DNA from: Ruminococcus albus 7 = DSM 20455
Lineage (GTDB): Bacteria > Bacillota > Clostridia > Oscillospirales > Ruminococcaceae
Length of the DNA stretch: 32,000 nucleotides
Assembly: GCF_000179635.2 (NCBI RefSeq)
Contig: NC_014833.1
Location: 2,760,001-2,792,000, forward strand
Direction: 5' to 3'
Of this stretch, positions 23,240-32,000 are shown piece by piece (positions within the stretch are counted from its first letter, which is position 1; each line of letters starts with the position of its first letter). The position numbers and the translations under genes were made by a program. Under the pieces are notes generated by a model. The model was not told where the DNA came from, did no database searches, and saw only the letters and a program-made list of their open reading frames with translations.

Positions 23240-23241
23240 AG

Positions 23242-23312
23242 AGGCGCCACCCAGATTTGAACTGGGGATCAGGGTGTTGCAGACCCACGCCTTACCACTT
23301 GGCTATAGCGCC
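23242..23312 (-). tRNA. tRNA-Cys (GCA)
   Basis: Reverse complement GGCGCTATAGCCAAGTGGTAAGGCGTGGGTCTGCAACACCCTGATCCCCAGTTCAAATCTGGGTGGCGCCT folds as a cloverleaf. Anticodon loop CTGCAAC. Confidence 0.9.
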
Positions 23313-23321
23313 ATAAAAAAG

Positions 23322-23394
23322 AGCGGATTACGAGGCTCGAACTCGCTACCTCCACCTTGGCAAGGTGGCGCTCTACCAGATGAGCTAAATCCGC
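23322..23394 (-). tRNA. tRNA-Gly (GCC)
   Basis: Reverse complement GCGGATTTAGCTCATCTGGTAGAGCGCCACCTTGCCAAGGTGGAGGTAGCGAGTTCGAGCCTCGTAATCCGCT. Anticodon stem-loop CCACC-TTGCCAA-GGTGG. Confidence 0.9.
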
Positions 23395-23433
23395 AAGTGC
23401 CAATATTTTATTGACAGTGCCTTTCGACACAAG

Positions 23434-23507
23434 CGACCCGGATGAGACTCGAACTCACGACCTCCGCCGTGACAGGGCGGCGTTCTAACCAACTGAACTA
23501 CCGGGCC
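23434..23507 (-). tRNA. tRNA-Asp (GTC)
   Basis: Reverse complement GGCCCGGTAGTTCAGTTGGTTAGAACGCCGCCCTGTCACGGCGGAGGTCGTGAGTTCGAGTCTCATCCGGGTCG. Anticodon loop CTGTCAC. Confidence 0.9.
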
Positions 23508-23532
23508 GTAAGAGTTTTATTCAAACTCTTGA

Positions 23533-23608
23533 TGGTGGGGACTACAGGGCTCGAACCTGTGACCCTCTGCTTGTAAGGCAGATGCTCTCCCAGCTGAGCT
23601 AAACCCCC
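23533..23608 (-). tRNA. tRNA-Val (TAC), CCA encoded
   Basis: Reverse complement GGGGGTTTAGCTCAGCTGGGAGAGCATCTGCCTTACAAGCAGAGGGTCACAGGTTCGAGCCCTGTAGTCCCCACCA. Anticodon loop CTTACAA. Confidence 0.9.
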
Positions 23609-23664
23609 ATTTTGCTGGACTTTGTGAGGTTTTCGTTTTTGTTTTGTCCCTCACAACAGTATCT

Positions 23665-23693
23665 ATTATACACCATTACAAGTGATTTGTCAA
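23665..23693 (-). promoter_or_regulatory. Consensus promoter of the tRNA operon (proximal)
   Basis: On the minus strand: TTGACA (23688-23693), 17-nt spacer, TATAAT (23665-23670). A long A/T-rich UP-like tract lies upstream (23700-23750). Confidence 0.75.
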
Positions 23694-23867
23694 CCCCTTT
23701 TTTCAAAAAAAATAATATTTTTTTATTTTAATTTTTTAACCCTGAGTTAACTTTATTTTCGGCACAAGATCCACGATCACTGCCCCTTTTTCAATATAAA
23801 AGGAAGAGCTCACGTTCACTGCATTCCGCAGATCACATGAGCCTTGTTCCAATGTTCGACTAAGCAT

Positions 23868-23896
23868 ATTATATACTATAGCAAGTGAATCGTCAA
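23868..23896 (-). promoter_or_regulatory. Second, distal near-consensus promoter upstream of the tRNA operon
   Basis: On the minus strand: TTGACG (23891-23896), 17-nt spacer, TATAAT (23868-23873). It lies just downstream of the hslO stop. Confidence 0.5.
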
Positions 23897-23912
23897 GCTT
23901 ACAGCAGCTGGT

Positions 23913-24791
23913 TTATTCCTTACTTTCTGCTATCAGCTTGCGCACCTCATCAGGGGTAAAGGTATACTCCTTTCCGCAGAAGTGACATTTGATATCAACG
24001 TTGCCGTCCTTTATGATATCATTGAGCTCCGCCTCGCCAAGAGATATCAGAACCCTCTCCGTTCTCTCACGCGAGCAGTCACAGCGATACTCTACCTTGA
24101 AATCATCAAGCACATTAGGCTCAAGACCTTCAAGCGCCATAAGTGCTATCTCATCGGTAGTCCTGCCGTCTTCCATAAGCTTGGTCACAGACTGCATAGC
24201 CTGAATATTCTTCTCGATCTGAGTGATTATCTCATCACTTGCGAAAGGGAGCACCTGTATCAGGAAACCGCCTGCGTTCTTTACTGTCAGATCAGCGTTG
24301 ACCAGTACACCAAGAGCGCACACGCTTGGCACCTGCTCGCTCTGAGCAAGGTAGGCTGTTATATCCTCAGCTATCTCGCCGCTGATAAGGGGCACCTGTC
24401 CGACATATGGTTCTTTAAGACCAAGGTCTTTTATAACTGTGATAGTGCCGTCCGTACCGACTGCACCTGCAACATCAAGCTTGCCTATGGCATTAGGCGG
24501 AAGTTCGACCACGGGCTGCATAACATCAGCCTTTACGTTGCCGTAGCTGTCAGCGACCGCTATCAGCTGACCTGCAGGTCCGCCGCCTTCTATCTTAACG
24601 GTTATCTTGTCGTCCTCGCCCTTCATGCCGAAGCCCATAAGCGAAGTACCCATAGCAAGTCTGCCCAGCGCGGCTGTTACCACCGCCGAGGACTCATGCA
24701 CACGCTCTATCTCCTCAACTATATCCTTGCCGTCAATGGCAGAGCATACCACCGAAGCATCCTTTGATATTGCTCTTACAATTCTTCCCAA
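23913..24791 (-). CDS. hslO: Hsp33 redox-regulated chaperone
   Basis: 292 aa with the C-terminal zinc centre CDCS...CHFCG and Hsp33-like N-terminal blocks. Confidence 0.9.
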   Translation of the reverse strand: MGRIVRAISKDASVVCSAIDGKDIVEEIERVHESSAVVTAALGRLAMGTSLMGFGMKGEDDKITVKIEGGGPAGQLIAVADSYGNVKADVMQPVVELPPNAIGKLDVAGAVGTDGTITVIKDLGLKEPYVGQVPLISGEIAEDITAYLAQSEQVPSVCALGVLVNADLTVKNAGGFLIQVLPFASDEIITQIEKNIQAMQSVTKLMEDGRTTDEIALMALEGLEPNVLDDFKVEYRCDCSRERTERVLISLGEAELNDIIKDGNVDIKCHFCGKEYTFTPDEVRKLIAESKE

Positions 24792-25219: not shown

Positions 25220-25972
25220 TTATAATCCCCTAGGCTTACGCCTGAAAACATAAAGTTCACGCTGAGTAGTATCGCATGGCGGATCATTTGTCAGCCCGTC
25301 GTATACTCCTATCTGTTCAAAGTCATACTCCTCCGCCGTCTCCTCGATAAGGTCACGCGGTAGCAGTATCTCACTGATGTACTCGCTCTCACGGGTGTAG
25401 CTGCCGTCCTCTTTTTCAGCAAAGAAATCCAATGCGATATCCACCCTGCCGTCTGCGCGGCAGTTATTCCTCCATGCACAGAACAGCCCGTCAAGTTCAT
25501 AGACGAAACAGTTATCGCCCAGTACCTCACGGTGCTTGTACTCGGTATTCACATCAAATATAAACAGCCCGCCGTCACAGGTGAACATTGAAGCACGCTC
25601 CACAGTCCTGCGGAAAGCTTCCTCATTCGGCAGATGATTCATGCCGTCAAGAACGCATACTATCATATCCGCAGCGCCCCAGAGGTCAAGTTCCGACATA
25701 TCCTGGCATATATAGGTGATATCGCTGTCAGGTGTACGCTGTTCCTCAGCTTCCTCCAGCATATCCGCCGAGATATCCACACCGATAACGTCCAGCCCAA
25801 ACTTTTCAAGTTCACGGCAAAGTCTGCCAGTGCCGCAGCCCAGTTCAACGACTACCTCGTTCTCACTGCTGTATTCAAGCCCCAGCTGACGTATCCTTGC
25901 AGCTATCGCCCCATAGGGCACATCCTTCTGCAAGGCATCGTAATATCCGGCAAAGCTGCTGTAGCCGTTCAT
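25220..25972 (-). CDS. Class I SAM-dependent methyltransferase
   Basis: Motif I VVELGCGTGRL followed by an acidic residue (GVDIS). Its start overlaps the upstream gene's stop by 4 nt (25969-25972). Confidence 0.8.
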   Translation of the reverse strand: MNGYSSFAGYYDALQKDVPYGAIAARIRQLGLEYSSENEVVVELGCGTGRLCRELEKFGLDVIGVDISADMLEEAEEQRTPDSDITYICQDMSELDLWGAADMIVCVLDGMNHLPNEEAFRRTVERASMFTCDGGLFIFDVNTEYKHREVLGDNCFVYELDGLFCAWRNNCRADGRVDIALDFFAEKEDGSYTRESEYISEILLPRDLIEETAEEYDFEQIGVYDGLTNDPPCDTTQRELYVFRRKPRGL

Positions 25973-26277
25973 TCCTCGGATCCCTTTTTCTTCTCCAGCC
26001 TGTCGAAGACTATGTTATATCCGCCGCTGCCGTCATAGGAAAGCGACCTGTTCACACGGCTGATTGTAGCCGTAGAAGCCCCTGTCTCCTTGACGATATC
26101 GCTGTATACGTGCTTGTCTGTCAGCATCCTGGCTACCTGAAAGCGCTGTGAAAAGCTCTTCAGCTCAGGAACGGTACACAGATCTTTAAAGAAAAGCCTG
26201 CACTCATCAAGAGTTTCCAGGCATAGTATCGCTTCGTAAAGCTCATCAAGATTTGCTATCTCTAATTTATCACGCAT
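25969..26277 (-). CDS. yerC: YerC/YecD-family TrpR-like DNA-binding protein
   Basis: The sequence ...LCTVPELKSFSQRFQVARMLTDKHVYSDIVKETGASTATISRVNRSL matches the family hallmark. The preferred start is ATG 26277, 8 nt after AGGAG; the tracked ORF starts at 26346 inside the promoter/att region. Confidence 0.7.
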   Translation of the reverse strand: MRDKLEIANLDELYEAILCLETLDECRLFFKDLCTVPELKSFSQRFQVARMLTDKHVYSDIVKETGASTATISRVNRSLSYDGSGGYNIVFDRLEKKKGSEE

Positions 26278-26336: not shown

Positions 26337-26365
26337 ATTTTAGCACATTACAGCGTAAATGTCAA
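26337..26365 (-). promoter_or_regulatory. Promoter of the yerC-like operon spanning the attL junction
   Basis: On the minus strand: TTGACA (26360-26365), 17-nt spacer, TGcTAAAAT (-10 at 26337-26342). The -35 box is half repeat core and half element DNA. Confidence 0.5.
26344..26362 (+). repeat. attL core CACATTACAGCGTAAATGT
   Basis: Identical 19-mer at 31686-31704. Extending by four bases (CAAG here, AAAG at attR) gives 22 of 23 matches. Confidence 0.8.
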
Positions 26366-26408
26366 GAAGTGCTTATAAACATTTTTCATTAAAATCAAAT
26401 GCATTTTA

Positions 26409-26434
26409 TAAAAGTGCGTATTTACGCTATTTTC
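26409..26434 (+). repeat. Dyad site A: TAAAAGTGCGTA-TT-TACGCTATTTTC
   Basis: 26-bp 12-2-12 imperfect palindrome. One of three copies of a roughly 30-bp element-specific motif, and the only one with central dinucleotide TT. Confidence 0.7.
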
Positions 26435-26495
26435 CGTTCTTCTCTGTTTCTTATCTGCTCTCAAAAGTCAAATAAGATTTATAAAAATCAACTCA

Positions 26496-26527
26496 AATGT
26501 CACCCGAATGTCAACCAAATGTCAACC
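26496..26527 (+). repeat. Three tandem AAATGTCA(A/C)CC repeats (11-bp period) next to the integrase 3' end
   Basis: AAATGTCACCC, GAATGTCAACC and AAATGTCAACC are read directly. The same motif recurs at 26357, 31052 and three times at 31616-31643, always in this orientation. Confidence 0.6.
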
Positions 26528-26545
26528 AAATACAAGTACAAAAAA

Positions 26546-27733
26546 TCACACTGCTTTATTAACTGTCCATGTTATGTTTCGTTCGCAGCTGTCTTTTTCT
26601 GTATCAAAATAGCAATCAAGCAGTTTGCCCGAATACTCTTTTGTCAACTTTTCTTTTTCTTCATGCCTAGCGTGTGTGTACACTGTTTTAGATACACCAC
26701 CCTTTAAAGACCAACCACCAACAATTTCCGCAATTGTACAATCTTTGTTATCACTTATGAATATGTGTCTTAATATGTGTGCTGTTATCCAATCATATCC
26801 GTTCTTAATAGCAAGTTGTTTAATACAACTACCATACTGCCAATTACATATTGAAATCACAAAATCATCATCTGATTTATGTTCAATACTATGTATCATG
26901 TCATACAATCTGTTGTCAATCAGAAATCTTCTTGTACTGTATTCATTCTTAGTTTCTTCTCTAAAATGGTCTTTACCTCTAATACAAGTCTTTGTAGCAT
27001 GAATATTCACATAACAATTACCGTTCTTCTCTTTGATAACGTCTTTAAATTTAAGCCCTCTGACTTCTTCAACCCTTAAACTGTGCAGACCGAGCAGCAC
27101 ACAAACAGCTGTCCTGTCTTTGTATTTCGTTGTATCAGCTTTAAGCCATTCAACAACATCAAGTGCAGTAGGCAAATTTTCAAAGTCTTTCTTTCTGCCT
27201 TTACCTATATATGTTGCATTGTTGACATAGCTTTTCAGTTCCTTTTGTACCTTTGGTGTTAAAGCTGGCACTTCAAAATAATTTAATACCACGCATAAAA
27301 CAGTAAACTCACGTTTCATAGTGGTTTTTGCACATCCTTTTGCTATATCCGTGTTAATAGCTTGCATTAAATCACTTTTAGTTATCTGTCTAATAGGTTT
27401 ATTTTGCAGTTCTTTGAAGTAGTATTTTATTGTATTGCGATAACTGTTAAGCGTGTTATATGCCAATGAAGCATGAGTATTGATATAGCTTTCAAACGCG
27501 TTGACAAGTGTAATATTATCACCGTGATTACTTTCTAACTCAATAATCAGTTCTTCAACTTTCTTTGATAGCTCATTAAGAGATTTTGCAGTTACCTTTT
27601 TTCTAATGCGTTTACCGCTTTCATCTTTACCGAAGTCAGCTTGTATATAATAATTACCGTTATCCGCTATATGTGCATTAAACTGTCTGTCACCAACATA
27701 AAAACAATTAGTATTGCTTTTTTTCTTAGCCAT
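26546..27733 (-). CDS. Tyrosine-type site-specific recombinase (integrase)
   Basis: About 395 aa with an SAM-like N-terminal domain and a catalytic C-terminus (LGLHSLRVEEVRGL..., AHILRHIF, VYTHA). Start ATG 27733 follows AAGGAG. Confidence 0.8.
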   Translation of the reverse strand: MAKKKSNTNCFYVGDRQFNAHIADNGNYYIQADFGKDESGKRIRKKVTAKSLNELSKKVEELIIELESNHGDNITLVNAFESYINTHASLAYNTLNSYRNTIKYYFKELQNKPIRQITKSDLMQAINTDIAKGCAKTTMKREFTVLCVVLNYFEVPALTPKVQKELKSYVNNATYIGKGRKKDFENLPTALDVVEWLKADTTKYKDRTAVCVLLGLHSLRVEEVRGLKFKDVIKEKNGNCYVNIHATKTCIRGKDHFREETKNEYSTRRFLIDNRLYDMIHSIEHKSDDDFVISICNWQYGSCIKQLAIKNGYDWITAHILRHIFISDNKDCTIAEIVGGWSLKGGVSKTVYTHARHEEKEKLTKEYSGKLLDCYFDTEKDSCERNITWTVNKAV

Positions 27734-27781
27734 AAATACTCCTTTCACATGATAGCAACACTAACACATAATTGCATCAGT

Positions 27782-27810
27782 ATTGTATCATGTTTTTAAC
27801 GTGAAGTCAA
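27782..27810 (-). promoter_or_regulatory. Candidate integrase promoter
   Basis: On the minus strand: TTGACT (27805-27810), 17-nt spacer, TACAAT (27782-27787). Confidence 0.45.
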
Positions 27811-27842
27811 GTTTATATGTAATATCAGAACATGGAATATTT

Positions 27843-28097
27843 TTAAAACTGTTCTAACTCACACAAGCTGTCAATATGATATACTTTACAGAAATTATAA
27901 ATTGATGATAGTTTCAGATTATCTGCACTTTGACTATAGTTGCTAACTGTTGTCGGAGTTACTTGTAAAGCCCTTGCAAGTTCCGTCCTATCTATCTTGT
28001 TATACTTGCAATAACCTTTTATTTTACTCCAAAGATAATTAGATGTTAGTTTGTCTGGTGTTTTTGCTGTGTTTGTGAAATTGATATTGGTATTCAT
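27843..28097 (-). CDS. Small XRE-type helix-turn-helix DNA-binding protein
   Basis: IDRTELARALQVTPTTVSNYSQ is a classic HTH_3-type motif. The preferred start is ATG 28097, after the AGAGGGAA RBS; the tracked ORF starts 20 codons upstream. Confidence 0.65.
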   Translation of the reverse strand: MNTNINFTNTAKTPDKLTSNYLWSKIKGYCKYNKIDRTELARALQVTPTTVSNYSQSADNLKLSSIYNFCKVYHIDSLCELEQF

Positions 28098-28123
28098 TTC
28101 TATTCCCTCTTTCTTTATATCAG

Positions 28124-28161
28124 CTTTAGAATTGCTCTCTGTTGTATTGTACGGCATTGTA
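28124..28161 (+). repeat. Copy 1 of a 38-bp perfect direct repeat upstream of the HTH gene
   Basis: CTTTAGAATTGCTCTCTGTTGTATTGTACGGCATTGTA is identical to 28213-28250. Confidence 0.8.
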
Positions 28162-28212
28162 AAGCCTGCTGTTGTATTTGTCGTATCTCTATACTACCTT
28201 ACCATGTATCAA

Positions 28213-28250
28213 CTTTAGAATTGCTCTCTGTTGTATTGTACGGCATTGTA
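28213..28250 (+). repeat. Copy 2 of the 38-bp perfect direct repeat
   Basis: Identical to 28124-28161. The submotif CTGTTGTATT also occurs between the two copies at about 28169-28178. Confidence 0.8.
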
Positions 28251-28492
28251 TAATTAAAACTGTGATTTTAATTTTTATGTTCTTAATTCTAGTCTTTATA
28301 GATAGTGCTATTATTATATTCTGATTTACTATTCTAGTTTTTATGTATCTGTGTAATTTATGATTATTAATGATAATTACTATATTAGTCATTTGCAAAA
28401 TTACAAAAGTGCATTTCAGCCCTATATTATGCGGTTTAAAGCACATCTGACATTTTCAAAAAGTTAGTCAACGACTAATTATTTTAGCTGTA

Positions 28493-29563
28493 TCAACTAT
28501 CAAAAAATCTTTCACCACTTGAAATGATTTTATTAACATACTCCGTTAATAACTTCATGCTTATTGGCTCAAAACCTTTTTTTCGCTTATAATCAGATGC
28601 AGCCGTGTTAGGTGCTTTATATCCTAACCACTTAAAGAAATCAGATAATTGTTCTTGTGTATAGAAATGGTCTATATACTTTGATAGAAATTCATATACT
28701 GACATATTTTTGTATGTAGTTTTTTCCTTTTTCCATCGCTCATATAACCGATTATTCTTTTCTTCTTGTAGGGTTTTATATAAATCACTATCAAGAATTT
28801 TCAAAAGCTTTGTTTTCCATTTTTCAAACTCTTTTCTTTCATCAGTATTGTTTGCCATTTTACATGACCTTAATTCTAATCTAGTATCAACATTTCCATT
28901 TGGTTCTTGTTTGCGTTTATGATAATACTCAATTTGAAAATATTGTGTTTGCGCTCTAAGTGTCAAACGTTCACACGATATGATGTCGGTACTTGCGTAT
29001 CTGTTTTTTATATTATACTTTTGGGATAATAATGCTATTAAAACGTTATTGAGTTTCCATAACTTATTAAATGTGTTATCATCGAAAAAGTCAAACCTAA
29101 AATCAACCCTTGACAATGATAATTCTCTAGCGGTCAATTCAAGGTTAAACATCATTTCATCAAACACTTTGGTATATTCACTTTTTTTATAGATACCAAT
29201 ATTATCATTAAATTTGTCGGGATTAACAACATATAACCACCGACCATCTTTCAAACATTTCCGCTTGTTATTATGTACATAATCTTTTTGTTTAATTACT
29301 TCTTCTTCAATTTCTTTGTCCGTCTTAATTTGAATAGTGTCAATTCCTGCATACATCTCGCTTTCAGAAAGTATCTTTAATGTATCAGGTGATTTAACTT
29401 TTTCACCTATATAATCAAGCACTAACTTAACAGCTTTATCTAATTCCTGTTCTCTGCTAATATGCCCCTGTGCAAATTGGTATTCAATCATTCTCAACCT
29501 AAAATTAGAGCGGTTATTTTTTCTTAATTTTCTTATTTCGTTTATTTCTTTTCCATATAACAT
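28493..29563 (-). CDS. Putative replication initiator / relaxase of the Rep_trans type
   Basis: About 356 aa. LSRVDFRFDFFD and YYHKRKQ...NVDTRLELRSCK resemble the conserved Rep_trans blocks (xDxxFD; YDK...R.E.R). Start ATG 29563 is 8 nt after GGAGG. The family call rests on motif resemblance only. Confidence 0.5.
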   Translation of the reverse strand: MLYGKEINEIRKLRKNNRSNFRLRMIEYQFAQGHISREQELDKAVKLVLDYIGEKVKSPDTLKILSESEMYAGIDTIQIKTDKEIEEEVIKQKDYVHNNKRKCLKDGRWLYVVNPDKFNDNIGIYKKSEYTKVFDEMMFNLELTARELSLSRVDFRFDFFDDNTFNKLWKLNNVLIALLSQKYNIKNRYASTDIISCERLTLRAQTQYFQIEYYHKRKQEPNGNVDTRLELRSCKMANNTDERKEFEKWKTKLLKILDSDLYKTLQEEKNNRLYERWKKEKTTYKNMSVYEFLSKYIDHFYTQEQLSDFFKWLGYKAPNTAASDYKRKKGFEPISMKLLTEYVNKIISSGERFFDS

Positions 29564-29700
29564 TTTATATTCCTCCAATCTTTTATCTATTTATTTTCTG
29601 TGTTTATTTTCAATTCAATCATAAGCACCACCACCATTTTATTTTATAAAGAATGTTTGATTTTAAGTTATATCAAATTGTCTTTTGTATTTTCAAGCTT

Positions 29701-29730
29701 ATTATACCCCAATCAAATAGAAAATGTAAA
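29701..29730 (-). promoter_or_regulatory. Candidate promoter of the Rep gene
   Basis: On the minus strand: TTTACA (29725-29730), 18-nt spacer, TATAAT (29701-29706). Confidence 0.4.
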
Positions 29731-30047
29731 CCCTTGCATTGTAAAATCTGTATAATTTACAAACAATCAAGGTGAATACTGTACGCGCTATTGTACATAT
29801 TATTCATGATAAATAATGAATGTGATAAAAATTAATAACATCACATTCACTGTTATACACTTACAATCTTAACATTTTGAATTGTTCGGTGTACACTTCG
29901 GTGAAAGTCCGAAATCCTTGTGTTTAGATGAACTAGGTAATAGCTTTACTGTACAATTATTTACCCTGTAAAGTTTTAATTTCCCCTATATCATGGTAGT
30001 TTTTATTCAATAGCCGAATAGTAAATTATAGTATTTTATTAGCACTC

Positions 30048-30073
30048 TAAAAGTGCGTAAATACGCTGTTTTA
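30048..30073 (+). repeat. Dyad site B: TAAAAGTGCGTA-AA-TACGCTGTTTTA
   Basis: 26-bp 12-2-12 palindrome with 10 of 12 positions symmetric and central dinucleotide AA. It shares the flank GTTTTAAGC with site C. Confidence 0.7.
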
Positions 30074-30184
30074 AGCACTTTAAATTGTTCGGTAGCATTT
30101 TTTCAATACCTGGTATGTGAATGAAGTAGCCATAAACATATAAAAAGTTAGCAAGAATTGTTATCATGTTCTATTTTAAACATA

Positions 30185-30228
30185 TAAAAAGCCTGCTATC
30201 ATTTGTTATCTTTTTGATAGCAGGCTTT
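30185..30228 (-). terminator. Terminator of the serine recombinase gene
   Basis: 13-bp perfect stem AAAGCCTGCTATC (30188-30200) / GATAGCAGGCTTT (30216-30228), followed on the minus strand by TTTTTATATG. Confidence 0.75.
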
Positions 30229-30231
30229 GTA

Positions 30232-30978
30232 TTATTCTATTCCGTATTCGGCAAACAGTTCAGACTTGTATTTATAGTAACTGTTTCTTGCAACTCCAAC
30301 ACCTTGACCATTTATCATAGCTATTGTATCAATATCATTCAGTGTACCATTCCCAAAAGCCTTGTGATACTTTACAATCATTTCTTTAACAGCTATTGAC
30401 TTCTTTGTTGTTACCGTCTGTCCGTTCTGTCTGCCTATCTTTTTCCCCTTTGCTTTAGCCTCTCTGATACCCTCGCTTGTTCTGCCGTGTAAATCCTGAA
30501 CTTCTTTTTCGCTTTGTTCAAATGCAAGCCTAATTTGTTTTTCTGCTAACTTAGTGATGTAAATAGCTACTTCTGACATAATGCCATTTATCAATCTGTC
30601 TGTATCATCATCATTTGTATTCACTTTAATTGATAACTTGTTCTCACCTAAAACCGACTTAAAACTATCTGTGTTTATTGTCTGTTCTTTGAGAAATACA
30701 AGGTTAATACCTTTGTTGTATAGTTCCATGTATGTGTTAAATCCTTCTTCTGCATTTCTACTCATTCTGCTAACACTATCAAATACAATCGTATCTCCTG
30801 CATGAACTATTTTAAGCAGCTTAATCCACTCTGGTCTGTTGCTCTTTGTTCCTGTGTATACCTCTGCTTTAATATCTGCTGTCGGGTATGCTCTTTTGAT
30901 GTTAGTAATCTGTCTGTCAATACTTTGTTTTGCTGTTGATATTCTGCAATAGCCATAAACCTTATTATTTTCTTTCAT
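30232..30978 (-). CDS. Small serine recombinase (resolvase/invertase family) with C-terminal HTH
   Basis: N-terminal YGYCRISTAKQSIDRQ (catalytic Ser), VFDSVSRMSRN, and a C-terminal GVARNSYYKYK HTH. AAGGAG RBS. Confidence 0.85.
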   Translation of the reverse strand: MKENNKVYGYCRISTAKQSIDRQITNIKRAYPTADIKAEVYTGTKSNRPEWIKLLKIVHAGDTIVFDSVSRMSRNAEEGFNTYMELYNKGINLVFLKEQTINTDSFKSVLGENKLSIKVNTNDDDTDRLINGIMSEVAIYITKLAEKQIRLAFEQSEKEVQDLHGRTSEGIREAKAKGKKIGRQNGQTVTTKKSIAVKEMIVKYHKAFGNGTLNDIDTIAMINGQGVGVARNSYYKYKSELFAEYGIE

Positions 30979-31031
30979 GTTTGAACACTCCTTTTGTATT
31001 ATTTTAAACGTTCGCTTATTTTGATACTGTG

Positions 31032-31060
31032 ATTATAACATCATTCAAACCAAATGTCAA
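31032..31060 (-). promoter_or_regulatory. Consensus promoter of the serine recombinase gene
   Basis: On the minus strand: TTGACA (31055-31060), 17-nt spacer, TATAAT (31032-31037). The -35 box is the complement of an AAATGTCAA motif copy. Confidence 0.6.
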
Positions 31061-31114
31061 TAGGTTTTGATACTTTTTTCTTTAACGTTCAAAATAATAC
31101 TATCTATTTACCGA

Positions 31115-31149
31115 AACAAAAAAGGCTCACTAATAAATAGCAAGCCTTT
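31115..31149 (-). terminator. Terminator of the 141-aa orphan gene
   Basis: Stem AAAGGCT (31121-31127) / AGCCTTT (31143-31149), followed on the minus strand by TTTTTTGTTT. Confidence 0.55.
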
Positions 31150-31154
31150 ACGTA

Positions 31155-31580
31155 TCATATATAGTTACAATACTTTTGCAGTTCCTTGTTCACTCTCAAT
31201 GCAAGCTGATAATCTTTACTGTCAGCACCAAGCACAACAACATAATCAGTATAATCCAAGCAATCATCACTTATTGTCTTTATCTGCTTAACAATAACGC
31301 TATCCCAATCAAGCAATAATATTGTTTCCATTCTGGTCTTTATAGTCAAGTGTGTTTCTCTGACTTTAACAATCGGGTTGATAACACGACTTGTAAGCCA
31401 CGAAATAAAACTGTCCTCTCCGTCTGACTTGCCTATATCTATTACAAGTTCTGCACCAACACCACGCTTTAGTCTGTCCATGTCCGTCAAATCCCAACTA
31501 TCATCTTTACGAAAGTCAAAAGCTGGGTCTGCAAGTTTAAAAATCTCTTTTACTTCTTCGATAGAATTAACATTGTTCAT
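31155..31580 (-). CDS. 141-aa hypothetical protein (sole unassigned cargo gene of the element)
   Basis: ORF with an AGAGG RBS and its own terminator. I recognise no motif in it. Confidence 0.55.
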   Translation of the reverse strand: MNNVNSIEEVKEIFKLADPAFDFRKDDSWDLTDMDRLKRGVGAELVIDIGKSDGEDSFISWLTSRVINPIVKVRETHLTIKTRMETILLLDWDSVIVKQIKTISDDCLDYTDYVVVLGADSKDYQLALRVNKELQKYCNYI

Positions 31581-31615
31581 TTGTGTATACCTCTTTTACA
31601 TAATATTCGCAATCA

Positions 31616-31643
31616 TGTGTCAATGTCAACTAAAATGTCAACC
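31616..31643 (+). repeat. Three clustered TGTCAA(C) motif copies at the right end of the element
   Basis: ATGTGTCAATGTCAACTAAAATGTCAACC is read directly. Same orientation as the left-end array. Confidence 0.55.
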
Positions 31644-31651
31644 TTGTTTTA

Positions 31652-31677
31652 TAAAAGTGCGTAAATACGTTGTTTTA
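31652..31677 (+). repeat. Dyad site C: TAAAAGTGCGTA-AA-TACGTTGTTTTA
   Basis: Third copy of the 26-bp dyad motif, central dinucleotide AA. It ends 8 bp from the attR core. Confidence 0.7.
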
Positions 31678-31685
31678 AGCTAATT

Positions 31686-31704
31686 CACATTACAGCGTAA
31701 ATGT
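31686..31704 (+). repeat. attR core CACATTACAGCGTAAATGT
   Basis: Identical to 26344-26362. Confidence 0.8.
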
Positions 31705-31746: not shown

Positions 31747-32000
31747 TTATCTGTTGCGGTTAGGTGTAAGAAATCCCGCAGGCGGCTCACTGTCATCTTC
31801 GTAATCGGGCGCTTCTTCGGAAATATCTTCCTCCTCAGCATCCTCGGTGCGTGTGTACCAGTCTTCGCGTATCTCCTCGATGATCGCTTTCAGCTCATCA
31901 ACACCCTCGCCCGTTACCGCCGAGAATGGTATACAATGTATATCCTCAAAGTACGGTATCTCATCTTTGAAAGCTTCCATACGCTCCTTGCGTGCGGTAG
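31747..32000 (-). CDS. C-terminal part of a GTP-binding protein (EngB/YsxC-like), with an acidic tail; 5' end outside the window
   Basis: The frame is open to position 32000 (...TARKERMEAFKDEIPYFEDIHCIPFSAVTGEGVDELKAIIEEI...). SAxTGEGVDEL is the G5-region pattern of small ribosome-biogenesis GTPases. The subfamily assignment is tentative. Confidence 0.55.
   Translation of the reverse strand, partial: TARKERMEAFKDEIPYFEDIHCIPFSAVTGEGVDELKAIIEEIREDWYTRTEDAEEEDISEEAPDYEDDSEPPAGFLTPNRNR

Follow-up and report, generated by a model that had tools for sequence, protein, structure and literature searches.

What kind of DNA is a 5.3-kb block that is much richer in AT than its surroundings and carries two unrelated recombinases within five genes? 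The question is raised by a 32,000-nucleotide stretch of Ruminococcus albus 7 = DSM 20455 (NC_014833.1, positions 2,760,001 to 2,792,000; this whole stretch is the window, and coordinates are counted from its first letter), in which the block occupies positions 26344-31704, between a GTPase gene and yerC. It is read here as an integrative plasmid-like mobile element of R. albus, either a minimal integrative and mobilizable element (IME) or an integrative rolling-circle replicon, with a probability of about 0.7. The element has recently been mobile, as seen in its ends, in the occupied and empty alleles of its insertion site, and in a contig in which both ends are joined.

The ends are formed by a 19-bp core, CACATTACAGCGTAAATGT, that is present exactly twice in the window (Table 1). 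No further copy occurs in the window with up to two mismatches, the expectation from shuffled sequences being 0, and when the two copies are extended to 23 nt they agree at 22 positions. Within the core, 5-bp inverted arms (ACATT/AATGT) can be read on either side of an 8-bp center, as would be expected if a crossover region is flanked by two core-type sites. The block between the cores, which are included in its 5,361 bp, has 31.5% G+C versus 44.7% for the remaining window, where the lowest value for any stretch of 5.36 kb is 41.0%. It contains five credible genes, all on the minus strand, encoding a tyrosine integrase, an XRE-type helix-turn-helix (HTH) regulator, a protein referred to here as 'Rep', a small serine recombinase and an orphan. 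Scans of these five open reading frames (ORFs) against Pfam, NCBIfam and PHROG gave no type IV secretion system (T4SS), coupling-protein or capsid domain, and a search of Rfam at a permissive threshold across the whole element gave no match. These results bear out most of what a preliminary description of this DNA had reported, i.e., perfect 19-bp direct repeats (22 of 23 when extended), a block more AT-rich than its flanks, five minus-strand ORFs, separate terminators for the recombinase and the orphan, a consensus promoter for the recombinase, and no capsid, lysis or conjugation-pore genes. Because the element lacks this last group of genes, the reading as a minimal mobilizable or plasmid-like element rather than a prophage or an integrative and conjugative element (ICE) stands: neither the structural and lysis genes of a prophage nor the T4SS of an ICE is found among five genes in 5.3 kb, and the absence of a complete mating-pore set is as expected of an IME.

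Occupied and empty alleles of the site were located through an exact-sequence lookup of the flanking YerC protein. Eight contigs (L010, L012-L018) that encode an identical YerC have an empty attB, in which right flank, one core and left flank follow one another exactly (...CCCCTTT-ACATTTACGCTGTAATGTG-CTAAAAT...) and the GTPase gene lies 127 bp from yerC. In a scan of one genome per species, the core was found as a single copy at the same empty site in nine Ruminococcus species genomes (R. albus AR67, 8 and KH2T6, and six metagenome-assembled genomes of Ruminococcus), besides two chance matches elsewhere. Contrary to a concern of the preliminary description, which had also anticipated the arrangement of the empty site, the 19-mer is thus not a repeat dispersed in the genome. 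Occupied sites carry the same five genes between the GTPase gene and yerC, and all integrated copies found, from more than 10 assemblies with at least two species-level flanks, share this one site; the window itself is identical over 12 kb to JHYT01000001.1 (assembly GCA_000621285.1). All four att sites have thus been observed, attL and attR in the window, attB at the empty sites and attP in a contig described below, and together with the tyrosine integrase they represent the element's own integration and excision module, as expected of an IME.

The joined form is found in contig L001 (5,267 bp; Logan assembly, SRR30829483), a circular permutation of the element with the order xre-int-[one core]-orphan-resolvase-rep, in which window position 26344 is fused to 31708. 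The junction lies in the interior of the contig and matches, almost base for base, the attP reconstructed from the window, so that the circular junction (31685-core-26363) proposed earlier as a check has been found. The ends of L001 overlap by 16 nt within an internal 89-bp repeat, which gives a circle of 5,251 bp; an integrated copy with one such repeat (L011) measures 5,253 bp from core to core. An attL-attR-joined form exists, in the form of this junction-bearing contig, and is consistent with a circle of ~5.25 kb. A more distant relative, L003 (6,414 bp; ENA TONG22-1 scaffold_1261), is also circularly permuted and without host DNA. Its proteins are 60% (Rep), 70% (Int, catalytic part), 82% (resolvase), 81% (XRE) and 28% (orphan) identical to those of the element, its integrase is split into two ORFs of 120 and 248 aa, and two small genes are present in addition. 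The core of L003 differs and its arm motifs are kept, as would be expected of arm sites that co-evolve with the integrase and of a core that tracks a different attB; the different core implies a different chromosomal target, as far as sequence can tell. Separately, two metagenome contigs, L007 (ERZ27247035) and L008 (ERZ27247007), break ~120-140 bp outside one or both ends of the element, a pattern that a mixture of occupied, empty and/or circular forms in the samples would produce.

Recombination at these sites would be the task of the 395-aa tyrosine integrase. This protein matches PHROG_1 (2.4e-27, residues 29-375) and, in Pfam, Phage_int_SAM_1 (PF02899; 28.9 bits, above the cut-off of 22.3); its score with Phage_integrase (PF00589; 20.4 bits) is below the cut-off of 27.1. 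The catalytic residues are present (R225, H324-x-x-R327, W346, Y357), and the protein thus has both the catalytic (R-K-H-R-H/W-Y) domain and the SAM-like core-binding domain of heterobivalent, lambda-Int-like tyrosine integrases. No arm-binding domain was detected in Pfam; the N-terminal 80 aa may resemble AP2-type arm domains. Comparison of the sequences shows that the integrase recombines an attP of ~300 bp with an attB identical over 19 bp, which is located between the GTPase gene and yerC and forms part of the yerC promoter spacer. The attP consists of the core flanked on both sides by conserved GTTGACATT arm repeats and the palindrome GCGTAWWTACGC. Three of the arm repeats follow the int stop codon and two precede the orphan gene, all in the same orientation, and six copies of TTGACATT, every one on the minus strand, were counted in the element versus 0.4 expected. 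All three copies of the palindrome in the window are within the element, one on either side of the attP core and the third in the non-coding region upstream of rep, where it is part of a 29-nt repeat 97% identical to the attR-side copy. The GTTGACATT and GCGTAWWTACGC motifs are probably bound by particular proteins, and the three palindromes suggest one DNA-binding protein that links the recombination and origin regions. The possibility that two tandem elements make up the block, with their boundary at the internal repeat copy near 30045, was rejected because there is no third core. A scan for the arm 21-mer returned 32 loci, only one of which (L072) is a true relative.

The XRE-type protein gives a match to Pfam HTH_26 just below the cut-off (2.8e-4) and to the regulators of PHROG_8 and PHROG_3. 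Its gene is called as 84 aa in L002, L003, L005 and L011, and this version likely has the true start. Element lengths of 5253, 5342, 5426 and 5592 bp were found, and most of this spread is explained by the number of 89-bp repeats next to xre, with 4.4 copies at 99% identity in L005 (11314-11705) and one in L011. The last copy carries the ribosome-binding site and start of xre. The repeats may be an operator or iteron array, through which the XRE-type protein would regulate xre-int. An ORF of 85 aa at 28189-28446 was rejected as a gene, being of low complexity, overlapping this variable repeat region and having no family match.

Integration at this site may also affect the host. The empty attB contains a promoter-like site directed into yerC, TTTACA-17-TGnTAAAAT, and after insertion attL reads TTGACA-17-TGnTAAAAT, with the -35 hexamer supplied by the element, the core as 17-nt spacer and the -10 region supplied by the host. 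Insertion would thus swap the -35 of the predicted yerC promoter for the consensus hexamer, and integration would preserve this promoter and may strengthen it, which may offer a small, testable instance of how a mobile element tunes the host operon next to it. The core is kept across nine Ruminococcus species while the surrounding spacer diverges (empty sites L010, L035-L045), and therefore may double as a host regulatory site, possibly a YerC operator.

'Rep', the candidate protein for replication or mobilization of the excised form, has a three-helix N-terminal extension of ~65 aa followed by a core of ~290 aa. The preliminary description had called this protein Rep_trans-like, and this holds at the level of fold and active site and fails at the level of Pfam and sequence families. 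No Pfam model (including Rep_trans, PF02486), NCBIfam or PHROG model matched it, and neither tblastn against 72,556 plasmids and 50,697 phages nor phmmer against the PDB sequences returned anything. A word-indexed search gave only nine close homologues, to which an alignment-based repeat added five proteins, the closest cluster being labeled Ruminococcus albus (NCBI). When 1.84 billion cluster representatives were searched with a profile, 375 related clusters (at 50% identity) were revealed, most of them of ~300-aa proteins that match residues 65-354 of 'Rep'. With the alignment of this family, AlphaFold2 produced a model with a predicted local distance difference test (pLDDT) of 92 and a predicted TM-score (pTM) of 0.82; with only ten sequences the pLDDT was 53 and the model unusable. 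In a Foldseek search of the PDB, the top four matches are chains of 4CIJ (RepSTK1, a rolling-circle initiator of the Rep_trans type), with E-values of 2.6e-6 to 8.9e-6 and a probability of 1.0 over ~215 aligned columns; folds of the TBP-like type rank after them. In the viral library BFVD, the best structural matches are Inovirus Rep-like proteins.

The active site can be followed in an alignment of the family, made with hhalign, to seven Rep_trans sequences (RepC of pT181 and six plasmid homologues; E 2.3e-4). It identifies motif I as NP(D/N)K...R157-x-D159-x-x-x-D163 (RxDxxxD), motif III as E217-x-Y219-x-K221, which falls on RIY191NK with Y219 over the catalytic Tyr191 of pT181 RepC, and motif IV as R233-x-E235-x-R237 (RxE). 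Among 88 sampled family members, R157, D159, Y219, R233, E235 and R237 are invariant, position 221 is always K or R, and position 80, assigned to motif N' by position only, is always D or H. The Rep_trans signature consists of a catalytic Tyr in motif III (Y-x-K) and three acidic residues that bind metal, located in motifs N', I and IV (Carr 2016, as summarized in PMC6499999), and the same residue classes are essential by mutagenesis in Rep_trans and MOBT enzymes (PMC6499999). The 'Rep' model, which has the two-lobed beta-sheet of 4CIJ, and the residues of its active site together lead to the conclusion that it is a predicted, divergent nicking enzyme of the Rep_trans superfamily that fails formal Pfam membership. 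Several results count against this assignment: none of the 88 sampled members matches any Pfam model at E<=0.01, PF02486 included; a profile of the 88 gives only spurious matches in Pfam and the PDB sequences (best, V-ATPase subunit E at E 0.012) and misses 4CIJ in the latter; the Foldseek TM-scores to 4CIJ are low (0.26-0.36); and the hhalign probability is only 44% with the seven-sequence alignment and 17%, a weak match, with the single RepC sequence.

In the proposed mechanism, the 356-aa nuclease (Y219-x-K221, with D80, D159 and E235 as putative metal ligands) would nick an origin within the 620-bp region upstream of its gene and thereby start rolling-circle replication of the excised circle; possibly it would also act as a MobT-like relaxase in mobilization through the conjugation pore of a helper. 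The dual role has precedents, as MobT of Tn916 and ICEBs1 is both relaxase and rolling-circle initiator (PMC5704250). Moreover, many streptococcal IMEs pair a tyrosine integrase with a Rep_Trans/MobT protein (PMC5704250, PMC7563843). Origin function of the 620-bp region is a prediction from sequence, to which it has to be objected that the most obvious hairpin in it, at 29817-29849, is not kept in the relative L002, and that no nick site or origin was identified in the element.

A possible, although doubtful, alternative is that the element is purely an IME, in which the nickase acts only as a MobT-type relaxase at an origin of transfer (oriT), and the circle does not replicate and spreads by hijacking a helper. 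This is where the relatives of 'Rep' on plasmids are relevant. Family members lie on circular contigs of 5-6 kb, which in itself favors the plasmid-like reading of the element: the 5,909-bp contigs L021 and L022, which come from two samples, are rotated copies of each other at 100% identity, each with ends that overlap by 30 nt, and L025 closes as well. A resolvase and an RNase III-like gene are found in L021, L022 and L024, and a Phd/YoeB toxin-antitoxin pair on the closed plasmid contigs. On such contigs the family protein is always accompanied by an HNH-like partner of 240-257 aa, which the element in the window does not have. Two findings from these plasmids speak against a replication initiator. 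In L023, the family protein is encoded together with ParA and a bona fide initiator of the Rep_3 type, and L022, L024 and L025 carry a 433-448-aa protein, with an HTH/DUF536 partner in L024 and L025, that is a possible separate replication module; NCBIfam and PHROG scans of this protein and of the 240-257-aa partner gave only a faint HNH signal and a DUF536/HTH match. Because these contigs already hold Rep_3 or another possible replication module, the nickase may have a Mob function there, or something else, rather than that of a replication initiator. Related plasmids are labeled 'non-mobilizable' by MOB-suite.

A purely mobilizing role would also agree with the N-terminal extension of 'Rep', which is found only in the clade of integrated (chromosomal) elements and not in the plasmid clade, and parallels the DNA-binding domain of MOBT relaxases. 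These have a recognizable N-terminal HTH fused to a PF02486 domain, an architecture reported only on ICEs (PMC6499999); neither part is detected in 'Rep', whose extension matches no HTH model in Pfam. IMEs with Rep_Trans-family relaxases have been shown to mobilize (PMC7563843). Nevertheless, beside its Rep_trans-fold nickase with a conserved active site, the element has neither a coupling protein nor a recognizable oriT; its resolvase and res-like site fit a replicating circle best; junction contigs were assembled separately in two unrelated data sets, suggesting an abundant circle; and the roles of relaxase and replication protein are not mutually exclusive (PMC5704250). In the window element, the 356-aa nickase is the sole candidate for a replication or mobilization role, and the integrative plasmid-like element proposed above accommodates both, rolling-circle replication and possibly also mobilization. 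More tentatively, the ~375 clusters could form a large unannotated sister family of Rep_trans/MOBT, i.e., new mobilization or replication nickases that link clostridial plasmids and IMEs, being present on circular gut and rumen plasmids of 5-6 kb, a part of them with another replication initiator, as well as in chromosomal elements with an integrase, and in which the integrated clade gained an N-terminal targeting domain, the element at the same time rewiring the yerC promoter through its consensus -35.

The second recombinase has an ordinary candidate explanation. It is a small serine recombinase with the catalytic domain of this class, matching Pfam Resolvase (PF00239; 1.8e-21, 77 bits versus a cut-off of 23.3), and with its nucleophilic Ser near the N-terminus; of the families named in the preliminary description, Resolvase was confirmed by profile searches, Phage_integrase stayed below cut-off, and Rep_trans was not found. 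The serine recombinase gene alone has matches elsewhere at the DNA level, all on small clostridial plasmids. Full-length homologues with 50-57% identity occur on clostridial plasmids of 8-11 kb (C. acetobutylicum pSMBb, the rat-gut pRGI00071 and HG796256, and 9-10 kb C. botulinum plasmids), and others on unannotated fecal contigs of 4.5-4.8 kb. The protein is most likely a plasmid-type multimer resolvase, autoregulated and inherited with a plasmid backbone, and this is why a 5-kb element would hold two unrelated recombinases, a point that had seemed puzzling before. In the model, it would resolve multimers and regulate itself at the res-like site upstream of its gene, where outer 17-nt inverted repeats (30996-31012 and 31084-31100) enclose GTATYAWWWT half-sites and AACGTT motifs that are kept in L003. 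That this action is deduced from motifs in the DNA has to be counted against it.

Improbably, the serine recombinase could instead be an invertase that flips a 71-bp promoter segment (31013-31083), or a second integrase or excisionase. Its best PHROG match is indeed 'DNA invertase' (PHROG_125, 1.4e-34), it has weak NCBIfam matches to the Mpi-invertase and XisF, and inverted repeats flank its consensus promoter. Yet the segment has the same orientation in all six copies compared, down to 74% DNA identity, and an invertible promoter was rejected as no flipped variant occurs among these relatives. Moreover, the internal GTATYA half-sites and their position over its own promoter resemble the res/tnpR organization of Tn3 and gamma-delta. 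As for a second integrase, the protein of 248 aa lacks the large C-terminal domain of serine integrases, and the tyrosine integrase with its arm sites already explains integration. Three human-fecal contigs deposited as 'Bacteriophage sp.' were also noted, of which MT839117.1 (4,561 bp) and MT838879.1 (4,788 bp) encode resolvase homologues with 52-54% identity and MT839593.1 (4,170 bp) a weak integrase homologue (30%); in view of their size, these could be small plasmids or elements of a related kind and not phages.

That the element is by now an immobile island, with the junction of L001 and L003 arising from tandem duplication or mis-assembly, appears slightly more improbable still. The doubts about the circle belong here: the 16-nt overlap of the L001 ends lies inside the 89-bp repeat and is not the 30-nt closing overlap typical of circular Logan contigs, the ends of L003 do not overlap at all, a tandem array would yield the same attP junction as L001, and neither the JGI metagenome contigs nor IMG/VR contain the exact attP 28-mer. 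Given a possible tandem array and this absence, a free circle of the element is strongly suggested rather than proven. Immobility is nonetheless hard to combine with occupied and empty alleles that coexist among strains with an identical YerC and essentially identical site flanks, with perfect cores, intact genes and the same site in different species-level hosts, and with two independent permuted contigs without host DNA, the circle size of L001 being within 2 bp of an integrated copy.

The orphan, the only candidate cargo or accessory gene, encodes 141 aa without any family match (Pfam, NCBIfam, PHROG). It has 11 homologous clusters, some in phage-like gene runs, which hints at an accessory gene of mobile elements, perhaps with an anti-defense or exclusion function. 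Homologues in L033 and L034 adjoin HNH_3 genes; that of L033 lies beside an IS605 OrfB/TnpB gene, and in L034 an integrase accompanies a long series of small early genes that resemble those of phages. The least probable explanation, a minimal phage satellite that depends on a helper phage for induction, replication and packaging, was among those entertained earlier and found no support: its small size, its layout of int with an XRE-type regulator, orphan homologues in phage-like runs (L034) beside HNH genes and resolvase homologues on the 'Bacteriophage sp.' fecal contigs would be compatible with it, but the five ORFs include no gene of the terminase small subunit, capsid-redirecting or primase type, PHROG matches are limited to integrase, regulator and invertase, no IMG/VR contig has the attP junction and the four that contain the arm 21-mer encode no relative, and the relatives of nickase and resolvase are on plasmids.

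Among known systems, the integrative plasmid-like element files with the small integrative mobilizable or integrative rolling-circle elements of Firmicutes, a kind that is documented in streptococci. The streptococcal IMEs compared here are IMESag-rpsI, IME_Sga2069_rpmE and the IME_oriT group (PMC5704250, PMC7563843), with which it shares a tyrosine integrase of its own, a site-specific att beside a housekeeping gene, an excised circle, a nickase of the rolling-circle-initiator type and the lack of a conjugation pore. Unlike them, it targets a promoter spacer and not the 3' end of a gene or an oriT, its nickase is beyond PF02486, a small serine resolvase with a res-like site is added, coupling protein and resistance cargo are missing, its host genus is a rumen clostridial one, and it is known here from sequence alone. 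Plasmids of the pT181 type, with RepSTK1 (4CIJ) as best structural match, share with 'Rep' motifs I, III and IV and the aligned catalytic Tyr, as well as relatives on small circular replicons; the differences are the lack of membership at the level of hidden Markov models (HMMs), the low TM-scores and the fact that no pT181-like origin was recognized. To our knowledge, plasmids of this type have no integrase and do not integrate site-specifically.

A Rep_trans-fold tyrosine nuclease on an integrated element is also found in the MOBT elements Tn916, ICEBs1 and ICESt3, and the double role of relaxase and rolling-circle initiator in Tn916 and ICEBs1 (PMC5704250) is the model proposed for the element, although these ICEs are of 18-30 kb and possess a T4SS and a coupling protein. 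The Bacteroides element Tn5520 has one integrase and one mobilization gene, according to a title cited in PMC5704250. In the minimal gene set of ~5 kb, Tn5520 and NBU are similar to the element. Their Mob proteins are unrelated and their hosts belong to a different phylum, and we know of no resolvase or rolling-circle-type nickase in them. With Tn3, gamma-delta and plasmid resolvases the element shares a small serine recombinase with an upstream candidate multi-subsite region over its own promoter, and with plasmid multimer-resolution resolvases in particular that the closest homologues are on small plasmids; its enzyme is of 248 aa, unlike the classic resolvases (~185 aa), and its res subsites are guessed from motifs. 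The actinomycete ICEs (AICEs) of the pSAM2/SLP1 type are plasmids that integrate via a tyrosine integrase, excise and replicate by rolling circle, and as a concept, an integrating and excising rolling-circle plasmid, they resemble what is proposed here. AICEs belong to a different phylum, use other Rep families and a tRNA att site, and have a TraB-type transfer function. The element thus differs from those described in its host genus, in a nickase beyond profile models, and in the added resolvase/res module.

R. albus is important for the degradation of cellulose in the rumen and difficult to manipulate, and the element is fully delimited and apparently active; its int/attP cassette, possibly along with a small replicon, is an obvious starting point for genetic tools in Ruminococcus, where the conserved 19-bp attB is present once in at least nine species. 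With one recombinase for the transition between chromosome and circle and the other for maintenance of the circle, the element would be an example of the plasmid-IME continuum. The most interesting by-product is a Rep_trans-like family of considerable size that is not covered by current profile libraries, and whose small plasmids and IMEs are therefore invisible to replicon and relaxase typing.

Table 1. Features of the element and its flanks in the window
Feature	Position	Strand	Remarks
yerC/yecD (TrpR-related)	25969..26277	-	First gene downstream of insertion point; TIGR02531 2.2e-35; Pfam Trp_repressor 7e-26
Hybrid promoter-like site into yerC (predicted)	26337..26365	-	Spans attL; promoter scan 11/12 with TG
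attL core	26344..26362	.	yerC-side 19-bp identity segment; exact repeat; single at empty sites and in L001
Palindrome GCGTAWWTACGC, copy 1	26416..26427	.	~50 bp inside attL; kept in L003 attP
Arm-type repeat cluster	26494..26531	-	Next to int stop; three (G)TTGACATT-like units, 11-bp spacing
Tyrosine integrase	26546..27733	-	395 aa from ATG used in relatives; ORF reaches 27748
XRE/Cro-type HTH regulator	27843..28097	-	84 aa from ATG preceded by ribosome-binding site; ORF reaches 28157
89-bp-period tandem repeat	28096..28250	.	~1.7 copies, between rep stop and xre start
Rep_trans-like nicking protein (predicted)	28493..29563	-	356 aa from ATG; TTG ORF reaches 29578
Candidate origin (double-strand origin and/or oriT; predicted)	29564..30183	.	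620-bp non-coding region upstream of rep
rep promoter-like site	29730..29701		In 620-bp non-coding region; promoter scan
Hairpin, 10-bp stem	29817-29849		In 620-bp non-coding region
Conserved block	~29880-29975		In 620-bp non-coding region; kept in relative L002
Palindrome GCGTAWWTACGC, copy 2	30055-30066	.	Non-coding region upstream of rep
Hairpin terminator of recombinase	30184..30232	-	18-nt arms, 94% complementary; kept in relatives including L003
Small serine recombinase (resolvase/invertase type)	30232..30978	-	248 aa; Ser14 in YGYCRISTAKQ
res-like site (predicted)	30990..31105	.	Overlaps recombinase promoter; GTATYAWWWT half-sites, AACGTT motifs
Recombinase promoter TTGACA-17-TATAAT	31060..31032	-	12/12, with TG
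Intrinsic terminator of orphan	31121..31149	-	
141-aa orphan	31155..31580	-	Only candidate cargo/accessory gene; promoter-like site 31629..31600
Arm-type repeat cluster, other core side	31615..31645	-	Two GTTGACATT units and TGACAC; kept in L003
Palindrome GCGTAWWTACGC, copy 3	31659..31670	.	16 bp inside attR; kept in L003 attP
attR core	31686..31704	.	GTPase-gene-side 19-bp identity segment
GTPase gene 3' end, host flank	31747..32000	-	Pfam MMR_HSR1 in full-length homologues

Outside the element, four tRNA genes (Val-Asp-Gly-Cys) lie on the minus strand at 23241-23608, 2.7 kb from it; the cluster was considered as an att site and rejected, as it plays no part in the insertion. A local dip in G+C content, at ~23600-24000, adjoins this cluster.

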